A stretch of 64,000 bases of DNA from an uncultured Candidatus Saccharibacteria bacterium (GTDB lineage Bacteria > Patescibacteriota > Minisyncoccia > Phycocordibacterales > Zambryskibacteraceae). How positions within the stretch are numbered: the stretch's first letter is position 1; each line of letters begins with the position of its first letter. This document shows positions 5,154-64,000 of the stretch, piece by piece. The position numbers were made by a program, and so were the translations under genes. Location: assembly GCA_964355645.1 (NCBI GenBank), contig CAYHDI010000002.1:92522-156521 (forward strand). Reading direction: 5' to 3'. The notes under the pieces are model-generated. The model had not been told where the DNA came from. It was given only the letters and a program-made list of their open reading frames with translations, and did no database searches.

Positions 5154-6209
5154 ATGTCAGCGACCCTCATCACTCTTTTTGTCCTCATTGCTCTAGTGTT
5201 ATTTTTGATTTGGAAAACGAGTCAAAAGCCAGAAAAGGAAGAGGGGAAGGGGCTCGAATTGATTCTCCAACAGGTCAACGAACTTTCTCGGACGATGGAC
5301 AGCAAGATGAATGAGACGAACAAAATGATGCACGAATCAGTGCGCTCTCAATTTGGTGAATCACAGAAATTGATTAAAGATATCACTCAAGAACTTTCGA
5401 TGGTCAAGGAGACGGGGCGCAGAGTTGAAGGATTCGCCGATCAACTTCAATCTCTTCAGGATATTTTAAAAAATCCGAAGCAAAGGGGGATTCTCGGAGA
5501 ATATTATCTGGAAACACTTTTGAAAAACACCATGCCTCCGGGGAGCTTCGCGATGCAGTATCAGCTCGGTGCTGATGGAGATGGCAACAAACTTATCCCA
5601 GATGCAGTGGTGTTCGTGAAGGAGAAAATAATTCCTATTGATTCTAAATTCTCACTTGAGAATTATAACCGTCTAGTAGAAGAAAAAGATCCTGTTCAGA
5701 AGGACAAATTGGAAAAAATGTTTGTTAGTGATTTGAAAAATAGAATTAGTGAGACCTCTAAATATATTCAGCCGAGTTTGGGTACGATGGACTTTGCCTT
5801 TATGTTTATTCCTCACGAGGCTATTTATTATGATTTGATTGTGAACAAAATCGGCGCTCTCCAAGAAGATACAGAGAGTCTGATTCAACGAGCCGCTTCT
5901 AAATATAAAGTAATTATTGTCTCACCGACTTCATTCCTCGCGTACCTTCAAACCGTCCTTCAGGCTTTGAATGCCATGCAAATAGAAGAGAAAGCCCAAG
6001 ACATTATCAAGCGTGTGGGCGAGCTCGGGAAGCACCTCAAATCCTATGAAGATTATTATTCCAAGCTTGGAAATTCTCTTGGTACAGTGGTGAATCATTA
6101 CAATGCTGGAGGCAAGGAATTAAGCAAGGTAGATAAGGATGTTTTGCGAATTACGGGCAAAGAAGCCGGTCTTGACCCGTTGACTTTGGAGCGTCCTTCT
6201 GTAGAATAG
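5154..6209 (+). CDS. rmuC: DNA recombination protein RmuC
   Basis: N-terminal TM helix, coiled coil, and C-terminal motifs DFAFMFIPHEAIYYDL and VIIVSPTSFLAYLQTV. Confidence 0.8.
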   Translation: MSATLITLFVLIALVLFLIWKTSQKPEKEEGKGLELILQQVNELSRTMDSKMNETNKMMHESVRSQFGESQKLIKDITQELSMVKETGRRVEGFADQLQSLQDILKNPKQRGILGEYYLETLLKNTMPPGSFAMQYQLGADGDGNKLIPDAVVFVKEKIIPIDSKFSLENYNRLVEEKDPVQKDKLEKMFVSDLKNRISETSKYIQPSLGTMDFAFMFIPHEAIYYDLIVNKIGALQEDTESLIQRAASKYKVIIVSPTSFLAYLQTVLQALNAMQIEEKAQDIIKRVGELGKHLKSYEDYYSKLGNSLGTVVNHYNAGGKELSKVDKDVLRITGKEAGLDPLTLERPSVE

Positions 6210-54058: not shown

Positions 54059-55309
54059 TCATTTGTTGTACCAAGGTGATAACGAGAAAAAGACATTGGC
54101 AATGTTCGAGTAGCCAGTCAATCTACTTATTGGAGACGGGGTTGGTGGAGGAGTAAACGTGCCTGGAATTGTTTGAGGAGCAGTCCCTGGTTGAATGGTT
54201 TGAATTGGGTTAGGAGATAAAGGAGGAGTTGGACCATCGGGAGACATTGGTTGAATGATACCTTGTGGCATAATATTTTTTTGAGGCGACCTAAAGTTTT
54301 TGCATATTTCCGGATTGTTCTCACAAAAAACTTTACATTCCTCTTGAGTTTTGCAACCGCCAGGTCCAGCTTGTTCAGATCTCATTTGTTCACCAGGATT
54401 ATTTTCCCCACGATTTTGTCTAAATTTATTTCCTTCTTCAATTTGTTTTAGTTGTTCTGGCGGGATAAGCCCATTGTCCTTACCAAAATTAAAACAGATT
54501 TCCTGGTTCTCTGATTTATTACAAAAGGCATCACATTCTTCTTTCCCCTTGCACCCCCCAGGACCCTTGCCCCCGGTTTTTTTCATCATTTCTGCATCTT
54601 TCTCTGTCATAAATCCCGCAGCCTCAGCAAATTTGATACAAGCCTCAACATTTTCTGGTTGTGAACAATAAGCATCACAAGCTTCTTTGCCTTTACATGG
54701 CAAAGGAATTGCGCCTTTGTCTATTGCGGTCATCATTTTCTTCGCATCCTCTAAATCCTTACCCTTTATAAAACCAGCCTCCTCACCAAAAGCAATACAA
54801 ACTTTCATGTTGTTTGGATTTTCACAATACGCATCACAGGCTTTCTTGCTACCACATGGTGGGGGTTTAATTCCCCTGGCAATAGCCGATTGTACCAGTT
54901 TTGCCTCTGCCAAATCCTTTGGGGAAAGAATGCCAGATTTTTCTGCGAAAGTTACGCATTCATTTATGTGACTAACGTCGTCGCAATATGATTCGCATGA
55001 TTCTTTAGTAGTACATCCTCCAGGGCCCTTGGTCGCTGCATTGAGAAATTTATTGGCGGTATCAATCTGTTCCTTTGACATAAGATTGTTTTTCTCGGCA
55101 AAGGCCATACAAGATGATACGTTGTCTGGCTTGTCACAATACGCTTTACACGAATTTTTATCACTACAGTTTCCTAATTCAACAATAGGATATTGGATGT
55201 TATCTCCCTTTGTATCAACTACCGTATCTGCAAACACGGTTCCAAAGACGAATATGCTCATCAAGATTCCAAAACTAACGATGTAGAAAGAAGGTTGTTT
55301 GGTGTTCAT
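54059..55309 (-). CDS. Secreted protein with six tandem 4-Cys repeats and a Pro-rich C-terminal tail
   Basis: Signal peptide. Repeats of about 45 aa with pattern G-G-C-x5-C-x3-C-x7-C-x2-FAE/FGE-x-G. C-terminal proline-rich region. Confidence 0.5.
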   Translation of the reverse strand: MNTKQPSFYIVSFGILMSIFVFGTVFADTVVDTKGDNIQYPIVELGNCSDKNSCKAYCDKPDNVSSCMAFAEKNNLMSKEQIDTANKFLNAATKGPGGCTTKESCESYCDDVSHINECVTFAEKSGILSPKDLAEAKLVQSAIARGIKPPPCGSKKACDAYCENPNNMKVCIAFGEEAGFIKGKDLEDAKKMMTAIDKGAIPLPCKGKEACDAYCSQPENVEACIKFAEAAGFMTEKDAEMMKKTGGKGPGGCKGKEECDAFCNKSENQEICFNFGKDNGLIPPEQLKQIEEGNKFRQNRGENNPGEQMRSEQAGPGGCKTQEECKVFCENNPEICKNFRSPQKNIMPQGIIQPMSPDGPTPPLSPNPIQTIQPGTAPQTIPGTFTPPPTPSPISRLTGYSNIANVFFSLSPWYNK

Positions 55310-55619: not shown

Positions 55620-58229
55620 TTATCCACTCAAAATTTCAATTTGTCTGTTTCTAAAGAACCACTTTGCGATCTCGATCAATCCAATGTTCAAGAGACCAAT
55701 CAACACAACGCCAATCACCCAAGTGAGAGGCAGTGCCACTGTGTTGAAAACCGTTTGCAGTCCGGGTATATAAATGGCGACGGCCATAAGCACAAGACCG
55801 ATGAAAATACTGCCATTAAGATATTTGTTTGAAAACAGCGAATACGAAAAGATGCTTCTGTCCAGACTTCGTACTGAAAGAGCAACGAGCAACGTATATG
55901 TTCCGAAAGCCGCAAAAATAAATGTTCGAACGATGGTCTCATCGAAGTCAAGTCTCATCAGGACGTAGTAAATAACAAAGAGTAGAGCACTAGTCGAGAT
56001 GCCAATGACAAGGATAAGGAATTTCATAACCGGATCAAATAGTTTTATCTTGCCTCTCTTCTGGGGCTTGTGTTTGAGACCATCTGGCTCTTGCTCAAAC
56101 GCATAAGATACGGCTGGAAAACTATCGGTAAAGAAGTTCACCCAAAGGATCTGCAGTGCATTAAGTGGCAACGGCAATCCAGTCAAAAGCGATCCGCCGA
56201 TAAGGATGAGCCCATCGGTAACATTAGAAAGGAGATAAACGAGCACCTTGCGGATGTTGCCGAGAATCTGCCGACCCTCTTCAATGGCCGCAACAATGGT
56301 CTCAAAGTTGTCATCAAGAAGCACTAGATCAGCAACACTTTGTGCCACTTCCGTGCCTGAACCCATTGCGATACCTACATCGGCTTGCTTGATGCTCGGT
56401 GCGTCATTCACTCCATCGCCGGTCATAGCCACCACCTCGCCCATCTCCTGATAGAGCTTGGCAATACGGAGTTTGTCGAATGGTGTGACACGGGAAATGA
56501 CAACAAGGTGTGGCAGACGAGCCTTCAACTCTTCTTCTGAAAGTTTAGAGAGCAGAGACGCATCAAGCATCGACTCATCATCGACTTTCATACCAATCTC
56601 TTTAGCCACGGCCATGGCCGTTCCCCGATGATCGCCGGTAAGGATAACCGTCTTCACACCGGCATCTTGTACACGGCCTATGGCATGCTTGATGCCGGGG
56701 CGAATCGGATCACGGAATGTAATGAGACCGTTGAATGATAAGTGCGATGCCGACAAGTCTTTTGAAATAGAAAAGTTTTCTGTGTGAGCCATTTCTTTAG
56801 TCGCAACTCCAAGCACGCGCTCTCCGGAGAACGCGAGAGAGTCGATCTGCTCGAGTATCGCATTCTTTTCTTTTGCACTAAGTGACGAGTGGTTAACCAG
56901 AACATCGGGTGCTCCAAAAAATACGATAAGATGTTTACCTGATTCTTTAATCAAAGATGCTGAGAACTTTTGCACCGCATTAAAAGGCATACTTTGGAAA
57001 ACATGCTCTTTGCTAGTGATGTCGGCAAATGTCATACCTCTCTGACCAGCTGAACGAACAAGAGCTGTCTCCATGATTCTGCCGTTCATGCGCCATGAGT
57101 CGGGGTCATCATGAGGATTTTCAATAAGCACGTTTGCATTGGTCAAAGCTCGAGCAATCAGTTTCTGCTCATCAATCTCAAAAGGAATTATCTTTGACAT
57201 AACCATTTTTGCCATTGTCAAAGTTCCGGTCTTATCAGTGAGAATGACCGTGGTACTACCGAGAGCTTCGGCCGCAACGAGCTTGCGTACTACACCTTTT
57301 CGCTTTGCCATCCTCTCCACACCGACCGCAAGTATAACGGTCATAGATATTGGCAATCCCTCCGGAATGGCTGACACGGCGATAGCAACGGAAGTGAGAA
57401 ACATCTCAAAGGCGGAATGTCCAACGAGGATACCTATACCAAATACCACAAGCGTCAGCACACCGAGAGCGATGCCTGAGTAGATACTGAAATTAATAAT
57501 GGCTCTCTGAAGTGGAGTCTTCTCATTCTCCGATGTTGCAATGAGCGAGGCAATCTTGCCGAGCTCAGTGCTTGAGTCGGTACGGCAAACAATAGCGGCA
57601 CATACTCCCTGAGTTACGAGCGTACCGGCAAAGATCATACAATCCTGATCCGAAAGTCCTGCTGATTCCGGCGACGGGTCTGTGGACTTTGATACCGGCA
57701 AAGATTCACCAGTGAGTATTGCCTCATCCACCTGAAAGTCATTAATGAACATGACCCGAGCATCAGCTGATACTCGATCGCCCTGTGCCAGTCGGATAAT
57801 ATCGCCGGGCACGAGATCTTCCGCATCAATCTCTCGTTCTTGTCCGTCCCGAATAACTCGTGCTCGCTGTTTAAGATACGTTTTGATTTCCGAAAGTGCA
57901 CGCACGGCCTTATTCTCCTGATAGAAGCCTAAAGCAGAGTTGACGACAACGGCGAAGAAAATAAAGAGCGCATCACGGTAGTGCGAAATGGCAAGCGTAA
58001 TGATGCCAGCAACTATAAGAACGAGAATCAAAGGACTCTGTAACTGATTGAGGAATATTTTTAGTCCGGTCGCTTTTTTAGAAGTGCTAATCGTGTTCTT
58101 CCCAAAAGCAGAAAGCCGATCCTTGACTTCTTGTGCGGATAATCCTTTTTCTACATCCGTTTCAAATAACTGTGCTGTGTCTTCAAATGATAGATGCCAA
58201 AAGTTTTTGTTTTGTATATTAGAGTCCAT
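55620..58229 (-). CDS. P-type cation-transporting ATPase (type II, Ca2+/Mg2+-like)
   Basis: DKTGTLT phosphorylation motif, TGDGVNDAP hinge, and a cation_ATPase_N-like N-terminus. Confidence 0.9.
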   Translation of the reverse strand: MDSNIQNKNFWHLSFEDTAQLFETDVEKGLSAQEVKDRLSAFGKNTISTSKKATGLKIFLNQLQSPLILVLIVAGIITLAISHYRDALFIFFAVVVNSALGFYQENKAVRALSEIKTYLKQRARVIRDGQEREIDAEDLVPGDIIRLAQGDRVSADARVMFINDFQVDEAILTGESLPVSKSTDPSPESAGLSDQDCMIFAGTLVTQGVCAAIVCRTDSSTELGKIASLIATSENEKTPLQRAIINFSIYSGIALGVLTLVVFGIGILVGHSAFEMFLTSVAIAVSAIPEGLPISMTVILAVGVERMAKRKGVVRKLVAAEALGSTTVILTDKTGTLTMAKMVMSKIIPFEIDEQKLIARALTNANVLIENPHDDPDSWRMNGRIMETALVRSAGQRGMTFADITSKEHVFQSMPFNAVQKFSASLIKESGKHLIVFFGAPDVLVNHSSLSAKEKNAILEQIDSLAFSGERVLGVATKEMAHTENFSISKDLSASHLSFNGLITFRDPIRPGIKHAIGRVQDAGVKTVILTGDHRGTAMAVAKEIGMKVDDESMLDASLLSKLSEEELKARLPHLVVISRVTPFDKLRIAKLYQEMGEVVAMTGDGVNDAPSIKQADVGIAMGSGTEVAQSVADLVLLDDNFETIVAAIEEGRQILGNIRKVLVYLLSNVTDGLILIGGSLLTGLPLPLNALQILWVNFFTDSFPAVSYAFEQEPDGLKHKPQKRGKIKLFDPVMKFLILVIGISTSALLFVIYYVLMRLDFDETIVRTFIFAAFGTYTLLVALSVRSLDRSIFSYSLFSNKYLNGSIFIGLVLMAVAIYIPGLQTVFNTVALPLTWVIGVVLIGLLNIGLIEIAKWFFRNRQIEILSG

Positions 58230-58233
58230 AAAA

Positions 58234-58437
58234 TTAATTGAGCATCCAAGCCGGTGGATTGAGCGCCGGCTTGACCAGCATCGGGTACCAATCTTTCACC
58301 GAACCGATCGTAAAATAGCTTCCCAATCCTCCTGCCAACTGCGGAATAATAAGCGAGATGATAAGTTTGAATACCTGTCCTGAGCGTAGTCGAAGGGTGT
58401 TGACTCGTACTGAGCTTGTCGAAGTGTTGATTTTCAT
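58234..58437 (-). pseudogene. N-terminal fragment of a TspO/MBR family protein (truncated), in a GC-rich patch
   Basis: LAGGLGSYFTIGSVKDWYPMLVKPALNPPAWM matches the TspO N-terminal motif (GSLFT...WY..L.KP.f.PP.W). It ends after about 65 aa at the ATPase start. Confidence 0.45.
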
Positions 58438-58440
58438 AAG

Positions 58441-59289
58441 TTATTTTGCAAAAGCGTCAGAAAAAATCATGACCTCTCTGCCTTTTCGTGATTCGTAAGC
58501 GTTATAATTCAAAGTAAAATTAACAATTCTACGGTCCAGATACAACGTTTTAATTTCCTTTTTATTATCATATGTAAGTAGCCAAAATGCATCGGGATTT
58601 TGGTTAAGTTTTTTTGCCAGAGCTTCGTGATCTTCTCTTTTATAATGGTTCAGATATAGCATCGAACCTTTTTCAAAATAAGGTGGGTCAAGATATATAA
58701 ATGTGTTTTTTTTATTCAAATATTCACCGATCAACTGAAGCCCGTCCTTCTTAAAAACCGATATCTTATCTTTATTGAGAACTATCTTCCGGATTCGTTC
58801 TATTAGGGTATCTTTGGTAAACCGGGCATCGATTTTATATTTACCATTTTGTTTTAGTCCACCGATAGGTCCACCGTCCAAGATGCCAGACGTATTAGTT
58901 CTATTAAGGAAAAAGGTTGCAAAACCGAGGTCAAACTGACTAGCTTTCTGATCGCTGTAAATCGCTTTTTGTCTTTTCCATTCACTAATTGTTACGGGGG
59001 TGGATTTTATTTTTTTTATGAACTTTGCAGAATGAAATATGGCTGATTTCCAGAAAGCATATATGGCTCTGTCCAGATCATTGATTACGATGCGATTAAC
59101 TTTCCCCGACAGCAATAAGGCCAGTGCCGCACCGGCACCACCAGCGAATGGTTCAACATAAGTAATATTTTCGAGCTCGTTGTCTTTCATTACACTATCG
59201 AAAAAAGGGAATAAAAAAGTTTTTCCTCCGGGATATCTTAAAGGACTACAGTGGAGTTTTTGATTTCTTTTTTGGGGTATTTTTTTCAT
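58441..59289 (-). CDS. D12-class (Dam-like) N6-adenine DNA methyltransferase
   Basis: RYPGGK, EPFAGGAGA (motif I) and DPPYFEKG (motif IV). Confidence 0.8.
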   Translation of the reverse strand: MKKIPQKRNQKLHCSPLRYPGGKTFLFPFFDSVMKDNELENITYVEPFAGGAGAALALLLSGKVNRIVINDLDRAIYAFWKSAIFHSAKFIKKIKSTPVTISEWKRQKAIYSDQKASQFDLGFATFFLNRTNTSGILDGGPIGGLKQNGKYKIDARFTKDTLIERIRKIVLNKDKISVFKKDGLQLIGEYLNKKNTFIYLDPPYFEKGSMLYLNHYKREDHEALAKKLNQNPDAFWLLTYDNKKEIKTLYLDRRIVNFTLNYNAYESRKGREVMIFSDAFAK

Positions 59290-59295
59290 ATGAAA

Positions 59296-59868
59296 TTATG
59301 ATTTTTTGCCAAAGTAAAAATCTAAAATATCAGCGACAATAAAGGAATCCTTCAATATGTCAGCTCGCTTGCAGATGATGTTGCCGTGGGCATATTTATC
59401 CAAAATGACCCCGAGGTTTCGCTGGTCTGAAAGCCACTCATTGGTAAGTGAAACATCGTTTTTTTGATGCTGTTTGAGCTCTTTCTTTGCTTCTTTAAGA
59501 AACAGCTCGCAAACTTGATCCTTCTTAGCCTTCTTTCCATCATTTTGATTTTCGTAATGCACACGAGCGGCAACTTCTACTAAAAGACGTAGTGCCATAC
59601 CTAGGAATGGCAATATTGCGTCATTGCCCTGATTCCTTTTATCAATATCTACAAGAGCCCGATACAAGTCATTTACCTTGCCTGAATTTAAGGCGATAGT
59701 TCTTCCAAAAAGATCGTTTGCAGATTTGGTAACCGGTGTTTTTCGTATTCGAAAATTATAATTTGTCTCTATACTGGCTTTTCCAAAAAGATCACTCTGT
59801 TTATTGCTTTCAGCCTCTTTTATTTCTTGTTTTACTCGATCATAGTCCTTATCCGAAATATTTTTCAA
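59296..59868 (-). CDS. Hypothetical protein (190 aa) inside the R-M island
   Basis: ORF tightly packed between the methyltransferase and the ParB-like gene. Confidence 0.4.
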   Translation of the reverse strand: MKNISDKDYDRVKQEIKEAESNKQSDLFGKASIETNYNFRIRKTPVTKSANDLFGRTIALNSGKVNDLYRALVDIDKRNQGNDAILPFLGMALRLLVEVAARVHYENQNDGKKAKKDQVCELFLKEAKKELKQHQKNDVSLTNEWLSDQRNLGVILDKYAHGNIICKRADILKDSFIVADILDFYFGKKS

Positions 59869-59874
59869 ATAGTC

Positions 59875-60663
59875 CTATATCTCCTTGTTATTTAAACGAG
59901 AAAACAATTTACCATTGTGTTGGCCACTTTTGAGCACGTCCCAGACAATGACTTTTAGCTTTTTATCAAAATCGCCATCCTTTATTTTCAGTTTTTTATC
60001 GTCATCAAAAGAGAAACCAAAGAATTGCTGAGCTGGTGTTTGGCCAGTCAATCTCCAGAAAGTTGTCACATAACCCGGGCCAAGTACGGCCTCCTTTAGC
60101 TCGTTCGCTAATTCAAGATTATTAACGAATTTTGTAATACCGACTCTTATCAATTCTTTTTCGCCAGCCTTACCACGTCGTTCTTTGTGGTGAGCGATCT
60201 CGTTAGAACCCCAAGATACTTCGTTGTTTTGGTTAAGATGCTTTCTTTCGATGAATCGGTAGCCCTGTTCCAAGTCTTCGGTTACTAGGCATTCCACTTC
60301 GAAATCCTCGGAAATTCCAATCTTTGATTTAATTTTTGCGAACTTAGTTTCCTGTGCACCTGCTAATTTGGGGTTAGCTAACAATTTGTATGCGGCGATA
60401 CGCCTATTACCCTCAAGAACCACATTGCGATCATTGGAATGCCAAACTACAATTTTTTCCAACTGAGGAAGATCGACATCCTTTTCCATCTCACTAGCTA
60501 ATTTCAGAACTTGAAATTTACCCGTTAGGAAATATTTCAACAGGTCATCTTCTAGCAGACCGAAATACTGATCGGAAAAACGAGCATTTTCATCCCAGAG
60601 CGAAAAGTCCTTAATAGGGATATCTTTCTTTTTCCATTTTGAATTTTCGATAATCATATTCAT
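59875..60663 (-). CDS. ParB/Srx-like N-terminal domain protein (arginine-patch GNRRIAA)
   Basis: VVLEGNRRIAAYKLL matches the ParB GERRxRAA box. Confidence 0.55.
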   Translation of the reverse strand: MNMIIENSKWKKKDIPIKDFSLWDENARFSDQYFGLLEDDLLKYFLTGKFQVLKLASEMEKDVDLPQLEKIVVWHSNDRNVVLEGNRRIAAYKLLANPKLAGAQETKFAKIKSKIGISEDFEVECLVTEDLEQGYRFIERKHLNQNNEVSWGSNEIAHHKERRGKAGEKELIRVGITKFVNNLELANELKEAVLGPGYVTTFWRLTGQTPAQQFFGFSFDDDKKLKIKDGDFDKKLKVIVWDVLKSGQHNGKLFSRLNNKEI

Positions 60664-60680
60664 TTTTAAGCTAAATTTTT

Positions 60681-62216
60681 TTACGTTACACCATAAAGAA
60701 CATGATTGTTCTCGATATGACTAAGAAATTCCTCAATCGTCTTTGGCAAAATTGAAAGATTCTCTTTCTCCTTAACGTAATTAATCTGCATGACCGAATC
60801 TTTGAATATGCTTGGGGCTACGAAGTAGCACACGGAATCCTTTGTGCCTTTTTGAAATTCTCCTAAATGTCTTGAGATCGGCCAGACTTCCATCATGGTT
60901 TGCATACGTCCTTCAGACATAGTTACTTCAACCAATATACCCTTAACATCTTCGAAGCATTCGATATCACCTTTGTCTCCAACACCTCCAGCTGTTGAGG
61001 TCGGAAGTCCTTCGTCATCATAAGGATAATTGGGGATCACCTTAACATTTGGAAATTTTGATTTGATAGCCAAAGACACAAGAAACTCAAGTCTGACGGG
61101 ATTTGATAAGTATTTCAAAATATCGTCTTTCGTGAGTCTTTTCTTAGCCAGATTTAGCATTTCGTCCTTAATTTTGTTCCAAGGATAAATACCAATCCAC
61201 TTGGCCAAAAATGCATCTCTTTCGCCAACACTTACCGGTTTAGCAACAAACGAGATTAGATTTTCGTCCACTGCCGACATGTAATCAAAGTAAGATTCTT
61301 CTGCAGTGTATTTTTTGTAATCAGAATAATTTGCCAAAGCATAATCAACCTTCTTCTGCTCATTTCTGTTTATATCAACAAAGCGGCCAGCACCCCTTAA
61401 TGAGATCAACCCCGTGAGTCTCATTTTTCTAATGAATTCATCAGGGTAATCAACCATTATCGACTTCGGATTGAACTTCTTGAAATCACCCTTCATGATT
61501 TGGTTAACGCAAATATCAACGATAACTTCCCAGCTCGGGGTATAGCCATGTTCTTTTCTAATTTTCTTTATAAGCTTATATAAAGCATCTGCGTTATTGT
61601 CTTTCCAAAAGATAATCAATGGCAATTCCAGTTTAGAAATTCCGGTCCCGTTTAAATCTTTATCAGCATTTATTTTATTGATCACGCTCAGTAATAAAAT
61701 CAGTGGCGCATTTTCATTGAGTACTCGTCTGAATGGACTATTGCTTTGATATTTCACGAAAGCGTTCAGAAAGGCCTGTTGTTCAAATTCTGGGTGTTCG
61801 TTATCAACTAATTTTAATCCGATATCAGAAAATCTCACCTTTTCACCATTTTTGTAATAGACGAAGCCGAGTTCCTTGGCGATCTTAAACCAAGTATCAA
61901 ATCGGGAAGCCCAGCCCTTACTAAAACCGGCCTCTTTGTGATTCTGCGGATTGTCCTCAAGAACCTTTTTAACTTCAAAATCGGACAATGGTTCTTTTGT
62001 TTCAATCTTTTTCTTTATAACAGCACTTATCTTGGTCGGTTTATACAAGCCAACTCGAATGACTTCCCCGGAAATTTCTTCAGCCAACTGATCATCGAGA
62101 ACTTTCCCGTCATAATCCTTAAGGACTCCTAAAAACCACTTGAGTCTCTCCGGATTTCTAAGTGTGGTAGTAAACAATAGTGGTTTGTATTCTGATTCTC
62201 TTGTTTTTGTTTTCAT
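60681..62216 (-). CDS. Putative restriction endonuclease (511 aa), family undetermined, possibly type IIS-like
   Basis: No NTPase motifs. C-terminal acidic cluster GDKGDIECFEDVKG is compatible with a PD-(D/E)xK core. Flanked by Dam-like methyltransferases. Confidence 0.35.
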   Translation of the reverse strand: MKTKTRESEYKPLLFTTTLRNPERLKWFLGVLKDYDGKVLDDQLAEEISGEVIRVGLYKPTKISAVIKKKIETKEPLSDFEVKKVLEDNPQNHKEAGFSKGWASRFDTWFKIAKELGFVYYKNGEKVRFSDIGLKLVDNEHPEFEQQAFLNAFVKYQSNSPFRRVLNENAPLILLLSVINKINADKDLNGTGISKLELPLIIFWKDNNADALYKLIKKIRKEHGYTPSWEVIVDICVNQIMKGDFKKFNPKSIMVDYPDEFIRKMRLTGLISLRGAGRFVDINRNEQKKVDYALANYSDYKKYTAEESYFDYMSAVDENLISFVAKPVSVGERDAFLAKWIGIYPWNKIKDEMLNLAKKRLTKDDILKYLSNPVRLEFLVSLAIKSKFPNVKVIPNYPYDDEGLPTSTAGGVGDKGDIECFEDVKGILVEVTMSEGRMQTMMEVWPISRHLGEFQKGTKDSVCYFVAPSIFKDSVMQINYVKEKENLSILPKTIEEFLSHIENNHVLYGVT

Positions 62217-62220
62217 ATAT

Positions 62221-63126
62221 TTAGTAATTGGTAATTAACGCTTCCTTAATCTGTTTCTTACCATTATTGTGATAACTGATGTAATTGCTCTCTATCTTGT
62301 GGGTCTTATATTTTTTCATCCAGTCAATCAACAAATCATTTTTACTACCGTTATAGTGCGTCACATTCGATAGAGCAAACTTAACACCTTTTTTATCCAG
62401 ATCATCGATTGTTTTTAATAAGTCAGCTTCAGCTTTTTGATCCCACCGTTTGTTGTATTCGCTGGCTGTTATGAGGTATGGCGGGTCTAGATAAACAAAG
62501 TCGTTTTTCCCATATTTTCGGCCAACAAAATAACTTCTAAAATCTTTCGAGCTTAAAGTTATTTTCTTATTTCGAGTAAAGTCAAAGTAGCCATTCAGAG
62601 CATTAACAACATTTTTATTAAAATCAACATTGCCAACTGGTAGATTGAATTTACCGCCTCCATTGAATCTCAACATTCTATTGAATCCGTAGATAAGCAA
62701 GATATACAGAATTAGAGGATCGTTTTTTATATTCTTATTTACGCAAACTCTTAATTTCTCATAACCCTCTTTGTTAAATCTGGCAAAATAGGTTTTCTTC
62801 CATTCCTTTTTTAAAGAGACTGGGATTACGTCTTCCTTGTATGATCGTGATAGACGATACTTTTTTATTATCTTTTCTACATTCTTAAAAAATAAATCTG
62901 GGTTATTGGAACTACCAACTAAAAATCGATGTATATTAATAAGATTTTTGTCATTATCATTCAGGAAATATTTGTCAGCCTGAATATTCAAAAAGACCGT
63001 TCCACCGCCGACAAACGGTTCATAGAAGTTGCTTACTTCCTTTGGAAATAAACCAACCAACTGCTTCATTAACTTGTATTTATCCCCGACGTAAAACAGG
63101 GGGGATCTTTTGATTTTATTTTGCAT
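62221..63126 (-). CDS. D12-class N6-adenine DNA methyltransferase
   Basis: FYVGDKYKL, EPFVGGGTVF and DPPY. Confidence 0.8.
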   Translation of the reverse strand: MQNKIKRSPLFYVGDKYKLMKQLVGLFPKEVSNFYEPFVGGGTVFLNIQADKYFLNDNDKNLINIHRFLVGSSNNPDLFFKNVEKIIKKYRLSRSYKEDVIPVSLKKEWKKTYFARFNKEGYEKLRVCVNKNIKNDPLILYILLIYGFNRMLRFNGGGKFNLPVGNVDFNKNVVNALNGYFDFTRNKKITLSSKDFRSYFVGRKYGKNDFVYLDPPYLITASEYNKRWDQKAEADLLKTIDDLDKKGVKFALSNVTHYNGSKNDLLIDWMKKYKTHKIESNYISYHNNGKKQIKEALITNY

Positions 63127-64000
63127 AATCGGTGGTGGTCACAAACAAGTATTCCTTATGATTCTTGAAATCGGTATTACCGGCATTAAAATGCCTGTAA
63201 TCTTTTTCAAAAATCTTTGTTTTACCCTTTGATGTTAAAATATCTTTTATTTCCTGTAGTGTGATCTTATTTTTTGAAGAATTGCTTTTTGAATCGTAAG
63301 TATTGTTGTATGACAGCACTAGATATTTGGCATCTAAATCCCGGACCAACTCGGCAAGCCTATCTCTTGCCCGTACCTTACAGTAATCGCTCATATTTTC
63401 TTCTTCAGGTTTTAGTGCTGTTCCGTAGAGTTTTGGTTTATCCCACTTCGTAAGAGTCTCAAGTACATGATAAAAACGGCTGTATTGTCTTGAATTATAT
63501 GGAGGATCAATATAGACAACATCCGCTTTGATCTTTTTTGCCAAAAGATTTGTGTCTTCTCTAAAGATAGCCACTTTCTTTACTTCGATTGGATCAATTG
63601 GCCTCATAAAAAACCCGTCTTCAACATGATCCTTTTTGAAATAGGCATCATAGTGACCAACCGTATTTGCAACCTTATCAATTGAATACAACAAAGAAGC
63701 AACAAGAATATAATATTCCTTATCAGTTAAATTGCCTTTATTTTCCTCTATATTTTCTCTGATGAATCCAATTATCTTTGAGGAATTATGACTGAAATAC
63801 TTTCCACCAAAGTTTTCAGAGAAATAATTCTTTTCTAAGTCTTCGCCGTTGATGTTGTTGTAATTTTTGATTATATCGTCAAGCTTTTGTTTGTCCCACT
63901 TACCGTTACCGAAAAAAGCTTGATAGATTGCGTAATTGGAATGTAAAAAATCATTCAATATGATTTCATCAAAATGCCTAGCCGCGACAGCCGAAACCAC
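63116..64000 (-). CDS. D12-class N6-adenine DNA methyltransferase. The N-terminus lies beyond the window end
   Basis: VVYIDPPYNSRQY. The ORF is open at 64000. Confidence 0.7.
   Translation of the reverse strand: MVSAVAARHFDEIILNDFLHSNYAIYQAFFGNGKWDKQKLDDIIKNYNNINGEDLEKNYFSENFGGKYFSHNSSKIIGFIRENIEENKGNLTDKEYYILVASLLYSIDKVANTVGHYDAYFKKDHVEDGFFMRPIDPIEVKKVAIFREDTNLLAKKIKADVVYIDPPYNSRQYSRFYHVLETLTKWDKPKLYGTALKPEEENMSDYCKVRARDRLAELVRDLDAKYLVLSYNNTYDSKSNSSKNKITLQEIKDILTSKGKTKIFEKDYRHFNAGNTDFKNHKEYLFVTTTDYAK

Follow-up and report, generated by a model that had tools for sequence, protein, structure and literature searches.

A minus-strand span of a Patescibacteria contig very probably comprises two independent defence modules, an AlwI-type restriction-modification cassette and a PD-Lambda-5-like gene pair interrupted by a nonsense codon

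Positions 58,441 to 64,000 of the 64,000-nucleotide stretch of contig CAYHDI010000002.1 analysed here (hereafter the window) are occupied by six closely spaced open reading frames (ORFs) on the minus strand, which include three DNA methyltransferase genes and an ORF of 511 amino acids (aa). Do these genes form a single restriction-modification (R-M) island, in which three methyltransferases and two extra genes accompany one nuclease, as the initial annotation proposed, or do they belong to more than one system? I conclude that the span very probably consists of two independent, horizontally mobile defence modules arranged head to tail. The first is an AlwI-type cassette made of two methyltransferases (M1 and M2) and an endonuclease (R); the second is a pair of genes (A and B) of the PD-Lambda-5 type, in which A is cut by a nonsense codon and has most likely been inactivated recently. 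Both modules belong to already known families, and the locus is in that sense largely ordinary, a type IIS R-M cassette that neighbours another known defence system, within a defence island of a bacterium of the candidate phyla radiation.

The independence of the two modules is established by their distribution. Of 80 loci carrying A homologues, taken as a comparison set from species-representative genomes (L008-L087), 76 have a gene for a B-type methyltransferase downstream of A and in the same orientation; none has the AlwI endonuclease or M2. Reciprocally, M1 (which carries a RadC domain, see below), M2 and R occur together, with unrelated flanks, at L088, L090 and L092 and on L001, a 162,569-bp contig from a Hainich groundwater metagenome (ENA ERZ1292618) that runs 2.3 kb past the window and then ends; the three contexts other than L001 contain neither A nor B. 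Since A-B is found elsewhere without the AlwI genes, and the AlwI cassette without A-B, the modules are independent and their adjacency here reflects clustering in a defence island. The opposite view takes the span as one integrated R-M island, with the ParB-like genes and each of the three methyltransferases working for the 511-aa endonuclease, and draws on the compactness of the span: the genes share a single strand, the successive gaps across the six ORFs are -11, 4, 17, 6 and 6 nucleotides (nt), and no terminator-like site was found between the island genes on the minus strand. It is nevertheless extremely unlikely, given the two distributions just described and the fact that in close relatives what precedes an intact A-B pair is instead a type I system in L005, a type III system in L095 and, in L003, an EcoRI-type methylase with GmrSD/HNH. 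The third methyltransferase and the "extra genes" of the initial annotation therefore make up a separate two-gene system; the six ORFs it listed are all present at their positions, but two of them, of 262 and 190 aa, are the parts of one gene split by a TAG codon. The span as a whole has a guanine-cytosine (GC) content of 0.363, versus 0.406 for the window. A strict rule by which A-B would always follow an R-M system was considered and dropped, because no more than about one quarter of the 67 upstream neighbours of A-B encode R-M enzymes, which belong to diverse families, and housekeeping genes are also seen at this place.

What is the nuclease of the first module? The Pfam RE_AlwI family includes AlwI, MlyI, PleI and N.BstNBI/BspD6I, and R.AlwI itself has the specificity GGATC 4/5. 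R (60,681-62,216, minus strand) matches the RE_AlwI hidden Markov model with an E-value of 6.1e-43 (147.9 bits, for a cut-off of 23.1), and its residues 6-505 give a full-length match to the PADLOC REase_II profile PDLC03507 (2.6e-128). Residues 396-497 align with residues 437-542 of N.BspD6I, which correspond to the cleavage domain (E 1.5e-7), and the BspD6I small subunit also aligns with this C-terminal domain (E 1.4e-5). D417, E430, E443 and H450 of R stand opposite identical residues of N.BspD6I, and catalytic roles presumably lie among these four. R has more than 2000 homologues, to which NCBI gives the name "AlwI family type II restriction endonuclease", and the closest of them are 74-94% identical, 507-525 aa long and mainly from Patescibacteria. 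R is thus a member of the AlwI family, of the type IIS kind, with a predicted C-terminal cleavage domain of the PD-(D/E)XK type. The proposal of the initial annotation that the 511-aa ORF is an AlwI-like type IIS endonuclease is borne out by these matches, and its view of two methyltransferases plus a long single-chain nuclease as a type IIS pattern by the fact that the trio recurs intact at three other places: the 511-aa protein does have nuclease homology, and the methyltransferases are not orphans.

The two methyltransferases of the cassette lie immediately upstream. M2 (62,221-63,126, minus strand, 301 aa) has a reading frame that overlaps the M1 stop by 11 nt, and M1 is represented in the window by its C-terminal 294 aa (63,116-64,000, minus strand), its ORF continuing past the window end. 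M1, M2 and B are all D12-class N6-adenine methyltransferases, as initially annotated, each scoring above the Pfam MethyltransfD12 gathering score (E 1.7e-23, 8.8e-28 and 4.6e-19, respectively). Of the motifs invoked for this assignment, DPPY is present in the three proteins, whereas within the window M2 alone shows a strict FxGxG (FVGGG); the corresponding sequence of B is FAGGAG, and the FAGTG motif I of M1 sits just past the window edge. The best PADLOC matches distinguish the two cassette enzymes, M1 with MTase_II PDLC03373 (3.5e-109) and M2 with PDLC03383 (3e-104). M2 belongs to the Dam family: it passes the NCBIfam TIGR00571 dam model (135 bits, for a cut-off of 114.85), and its nearest solved structures, T4 Dam (1.9e-38), DpnM and E. 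coli Dam, are GATC methylases. Two PADLOC profiles of fused two-domain methyltransferases, PDLC03292 (722 positions) and PDLC03287 (646 positions), match the two enzymes in turn, M1 with the first half of each profile and M2 with the second. Such a pattern would be expected of a system with one enzyme per strand of an asymmetric site. M.FokI is a single protein with two D12 methyltransferase domains, one for each strand, and the match of M1 and M2 to the two halves of fused profiles fits a similar division of labour. Unlike in FokI, however, the methyltransferase domains are here encoded by separate overlapping genes, and the endonuclease is of the AlwI family, not of the FokI family.

The part of M1 that lies beyond the window edge holds a further domain. 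The complete protein has 605 aa (L001 1399-3216) and begins with a full RadC/JAB domain containing the HNHPSG motif, which matches PDB entry 2qlc (2e-24) and is 42% identical to the free-standing RadC of a relative. This fusion is present in all of the top 120 clusters of M1 homologues, which are 76-96% identical, come from several phyla and are 601-611 aa long with both Pfam domains. An artefact of gene calling or recombination is ruled out by the single uninterrupted ORF and by the 120 clusters, whose uniformity indicates that this cassette, although very mobile, has kept the fusion as a conserved trait. In public annotation the RadC-M1 homologues are often labelled only "DNA repair protein RadC", so that a RadC-methyltransferase fusion that is highly conserved across phyla goes under a misleading name. 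In the RadC literature consulted, the fusions described involve HhH, ArdC, primase and helicase domains, and an R-M methyltransferase is not among them. A gene for a Fic-domain protein (L001 191-1354) lies just upstream of RadC-M1, and in a relative (L005 1256-2869) a Fic gene likewise precedes a free-standing RadC, which is followed by a type I R-M system. The shared Fic-RadC arrangement suggests a common island backbone on which R-M cassettes have been exchanged.

How would the cassette act? By analogy with characterised relatives, M1 and M2 would share out the protection of an asymmetric site, one strand to each, by N6-adenine methylation; R would bind this site through the N-terminal domains of its single chain and, upon dimerisation via its C-terminal PD-(D/E)XK-type domain, would cleave the two strands at a distance of a few bases. 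In AlwI and MlyI each chain has a single catalytic site and cleavage is the work of a homodimer, while BstNBI/BspD6I requires a separately encoded small subunit (PMC3017599). One may ask whether R is instead a strand-specific nicking enzyme, or depends on a separate catalytic subunit, like N.BstNBI/BspD6I. Its only solved relatives are indeed N.BspD6I and the small subunit, and a PADLOC "nicking endonuclease" profile also matches R (1.4e-37). Yet the best full-length profile, with its far lower E-value, is labelled as a restriction enzyme; a small catalytic subunit gene was not found beside R in any of four contexts (L001, L088, L090 and L092), which sets the cassette apart from BstNBI/BspD6I, and the ORFs next to R in the window are all accounted for; and the cassette has retained two methyltransferases, the number to be expected if neither strand is spared. 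Nicking, or dependence on a partner subunit, is therefore distinctly improbable, and cleavage of both strands by a homodimer of R is the predicted mode of action.

The recognition site can be approached through the composition of the DNA. Over the whole window together with the 2.3 kb of L001, no other tetramer comes near GATC in its degree of depletion (observed/expected about 0.56). For GGATC the observed/expected ratio is 0.74 (rank 19 of 512) and for GAGTC it is 0.80 (rank 49). Because M2 is Dam-like and both GATC and GGATC are depleted, the best guess, and only a guess, is that the cassette recognises a GATC-containing site such as GGATC. The cassette would then resemble the AlwI R-M system in three respects, its single-chain RE_AlwI enzyme, the adenine methyltransferases alongside and a Dam-like M2 that fits a GATC-containing site, and would differ from it by its two separate methyltransferase genes and by the RadC/JAB domain on M1.

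The second module begins 17 nt after R. The 262-aa ORF (codons at 59,878-60,663, minus strand; 59,875-60,663 with the stop, as listed) matches the PADLOC PD-Lambda-5_A profile at 9e-26 over profile positions 4-241 of 466, and 24 further PD-Lambda-5_A profiles as well. An intact homologue of A (P0001) matches PD-Lambda-5_A over positions 4-423 of 440 (2e-29), and more distant members of the A family do so at up to 3e-77 and over the full length. B (58,441-59,289, minus strand, 282 aa) lies directly downstream of A, with a spacer of 6 nt, and matches PD-Lambda-5_B at 3e-112 (positions 4-272 of 291). PD-lambda-5 was found in an E. coli prophage as a compact "RM+Abi"-like system giving broad protection against phage, and its cloning needed an mrr-deleted host (Vassallo et al. 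2022, PMC9519451). The pair described here shares with it the order of the genes, A then B, and the profile matches of both proteins, known here from sequence, but differs by the TAG that interrupts A, the divergent C-terminal half of A and the groundwater Patescibacteria host. PD-Lambda-5-like A-B pairs are widespread, being present in Patescibacteria, Bacteroidota, Proteobacteria (Gammaproteobacteria) and metagenome-assembled genomes (MAGs) of DPANN and Asgard archaea. No published mechanism for PD-lambda-5 was found in a literature search; the family delineated here has a conserved ParB-like half, a variable C-terminal half and a frequent location beside diverse restriction systems. The A genes of two Candidatus Peribacteria MAGs (L026 and L071) contain in-frame TGA codons, perhaps a sign of an alternative genetic code, perhaps of pseudogenes.

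The architecture of A was deduced from an AlphaFold model of the intact homologue P0001 (mean predicted local distance difference test, pLDDT, 83.6). In Foldseek searches, the N-terminal region of approximately 285 residues retrieves ParB, Noc, KorB and sulfiredoxin (best E 4.8e-3, probability about 1.0, the E-values being modest); they are followed by a low-confidence linker (residues approximately 288-310) and by a helical bundle (residues 325-447). The A family has an invariant E84-G85-N86-R87-R88 motif (EGNRR), at the position occupied in ParB by the arginine-rich GxxRxxA box. No Pfam ParB match was obtained for the window ORF, nor for any of 49 family members at E-values up to 1, and a profile search of PDB sequences gave no match. 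The locus shows neither a partition context nor a ParA partner, the neighbours being restriction and methylase genes. In the model, the N-terminal half of A is thus ParB-like in fold only. It resembles the N-terminal CTP-binding domain of ParB, Noc and KorB by its ParB/sulfiredoxin (ParB/Srx) fold, but A differs from ParB in that it lacks a Pfam ParB match and a ParA, continues into a helical effector-like domain and is paired with a methyltransferase. The "ParB-like gene pair" of the initial annotation is accordingly right as regards the fold of its first member and wrong as regards the pair, which is one gene with a TAG. The C-terminal part (192 codons, 59,296-59,874, minus strand) is a putative effector domain. 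It is far more variable in the family than the N-terminal half, with R94, N137 and H161 invariant; modelled alone, the C-terminal ORF is all-helical (pLDDT 80), with a first helix of low confidence. No PADLOC profile recognises the C-terminal half of A on its own, and it represents a divergent subtype. A preprint assigns a HEPN domain to PD-lambda-5.

Is the interruption of A real, and what are its consequences? The 262-aa ORF and the 190-aa ORF (listed from a TTG at 59,868, 59,296-59,868, minus strand) share the same frame and are separated by a single TAG (59,875-59,877), in the context AAG GAG ATA TAG GAC TAT TTG; this TAG is codon 263 of A. A sequencing or assembly error is ruled out, since the identical TAG sequence is found in L002, an independent assembly from another sample. 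Read through the TAG, A has over 100 homologues that are single chains of 448-456 aa; their identity reaches 93% and their alignments cover 98-100% of it. The codon opposite the TAG is CAG (Gln) in the closest relative and TCA, CTT or CAT elsewhere, the residue at this position being Ser, Leu, Phe or His. A single C-to-T change, from CAG to TAG, would thus have cut A into the 262-aa and 190-aa ORFs. None of 88 A loci is otherwise split at this position, although five carry other interruptions. In the P0001 model, the stop falls within a confidently predicted helix (residues 255-264, pLDDT about 92), some 25 residues before the flexible linker, which argues against a clean division between domains. 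These observations point to a recent inactivating mutation of A as the most likely explanation, and such a mutation would leave B as a stand-alone methylase.

Several results count against the overall reading proposed here, and most of them concern the fate of A. The ratio of nonsynonymous to synonymous substitution rates (dN/dS) is 0.02-0.07 in both halves of A, and the changes unique to the window lineage are 12 synonymous and no nonsynonymous ones, so that no decay is apparent; the absence of decay after the stop means that the mutation is either recent or tolerated. An AAGGAG sequence precedes by 12 nt the in-frame TTG that lies two codons past the stop, and separate translation of the C-terminal part is possible. 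No fold could be named for the C-terminal half of A, with HEPN proteins retrieved only at insignificant E-values of 3-4. With regard to the first module, the depletion of GGATC reaches just rank 19 among the 512 sequences compared, and depletion of GATC is common among bacteria, which weakens the guess as to the site.

The purifying selection and the AAGGAG-TTG arrangement, together with the occurrence of the TAG allele in two assemblies, are what could be expected if the split A were functional, with the 262-aa and 190-aa polypeptides, the second produced by re-initiation at the TTG, assembling into an active defence protein. This is a genuine alternative, though an unlikely one. The AAG GAG and TTG are ordinary conserved codons that are also present in the intact relatives and hence reveal no adaptation; a break within a well-modelled helix, and the low-confidence first helix of the C-terminal ORF taken alone, do not favour reassembly, nor does the lack of any other locus split there; and a very recent mutation accounts equally well for the absence of decay. 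A different way to reconcile an undecayed gene with the TAG would be readthrough or recoding, for instance as Gln, giving a full-length A of 455 aa, an idea to which the Gln codon of the closest homologue lends some appeal. However, TAG is an ordinary stop codon here, with which 9 of the 39 other long ORFs of the window end, the only tRNA genes in the window are those of tRNA-Glu, tRNA-Ala and tRNA-Val, with no suppressor among them, and the correspondence with Gln is explained by one transition from CAG. Recoding is therefore highly implausible, and recent inactivation of A is retained as the most likely reading. This natural nonsense allele, located near a domain boundary, offers a ready test of whether the halves of A can function separately and of how well an orphan B methylase is tolerated. 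A more adventurous proposal, with rather little chance of being correct, is that the split A is a working two-piece system, a ParB-like sensor acting with a helical effector in trans, and/or that the RadC/JAB domain on M1 endows the AlwI-type cassette with an undescribed activity, such as processing or binding incoming single-stranded DNA for altered methylation or restriction.

The last question concerns the boundary of the island on the side of B, where the initial annotation had noticed a GC-rich TspO fragment and considered it consistent with an insertion into a pre-existing gene. The fragment (58,234-58,437, minus strand), which belongs to neither system, is confirmed as a 5' remnant of TspO. 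It matches Pfam TspO_MBR (E 3.7e-6, profile positions 2-39 of 145) and has 238 homologues in a representative library. Its ORF has 67 codons, of which about 45 are homologous to TspO, and in tblastn searches 30 full-length TspO proteins align over their first approximately 50 residues only; the full five-helix domain is not present. Its GC content of 0.475 is close to that of the adjacent ATPase gene (0.462), as opposed to 0.363 for the island. This higher GC content, and the distance of 3 nt between the start codon of the remnant and the stop of B, are in keeping with an island that inserted into and broke the TspO gene. Yet the orientation is the reverse of what this requires: the intact 5' end of TspO abuts the island, and the truncated 3' end lies on the far side, 4 nt from the start codon of the ATPase. 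Moreover, no C-terminal TspO piece is present in the window, and the 2.3 kb past the window hold RadC-M1 and the Fic gene before the contig ends. Insertion into TspO is thus very improbable, and the position of the break indicates that the truncating event involved the ATPase side. A candidate C-terminal piece at 5,172-5,414 (plus strand; tblastn E about 0.006) was rejected, since it corresponds to a transmembrane helix at the N terminus of an unrelated ORF of 351 aa.

Some details of this flank may be added. The 13 nt that follow the stop of B (ATGAAAATCAACA) are identical in the contig of the closest relative (L094), and an imperfect direct repeat (TCAACAC..TTCGAC.A.GCTCAG) comes after them. 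The first approximately 20 codons of the TspO ORF (58,375-58,437) are not TspO sequence; the possibility that the GC-rich stretch of 60 nt preceding the TspO homology is a dispersed repeat was rejected, the motif being unique in the window. The ATPase next to the remnant (55,620-58,229) is a P-type cation ATPase of 869 aa, with a GC content of 0.46 for a window mean of 0.41. Further on, positions 54,059-55,309 encode a secreted-looking protein of 416 aa in which a Cys-rich unit of about 40 residues (C..C..YC......C..F) is repeated several times in tandem.

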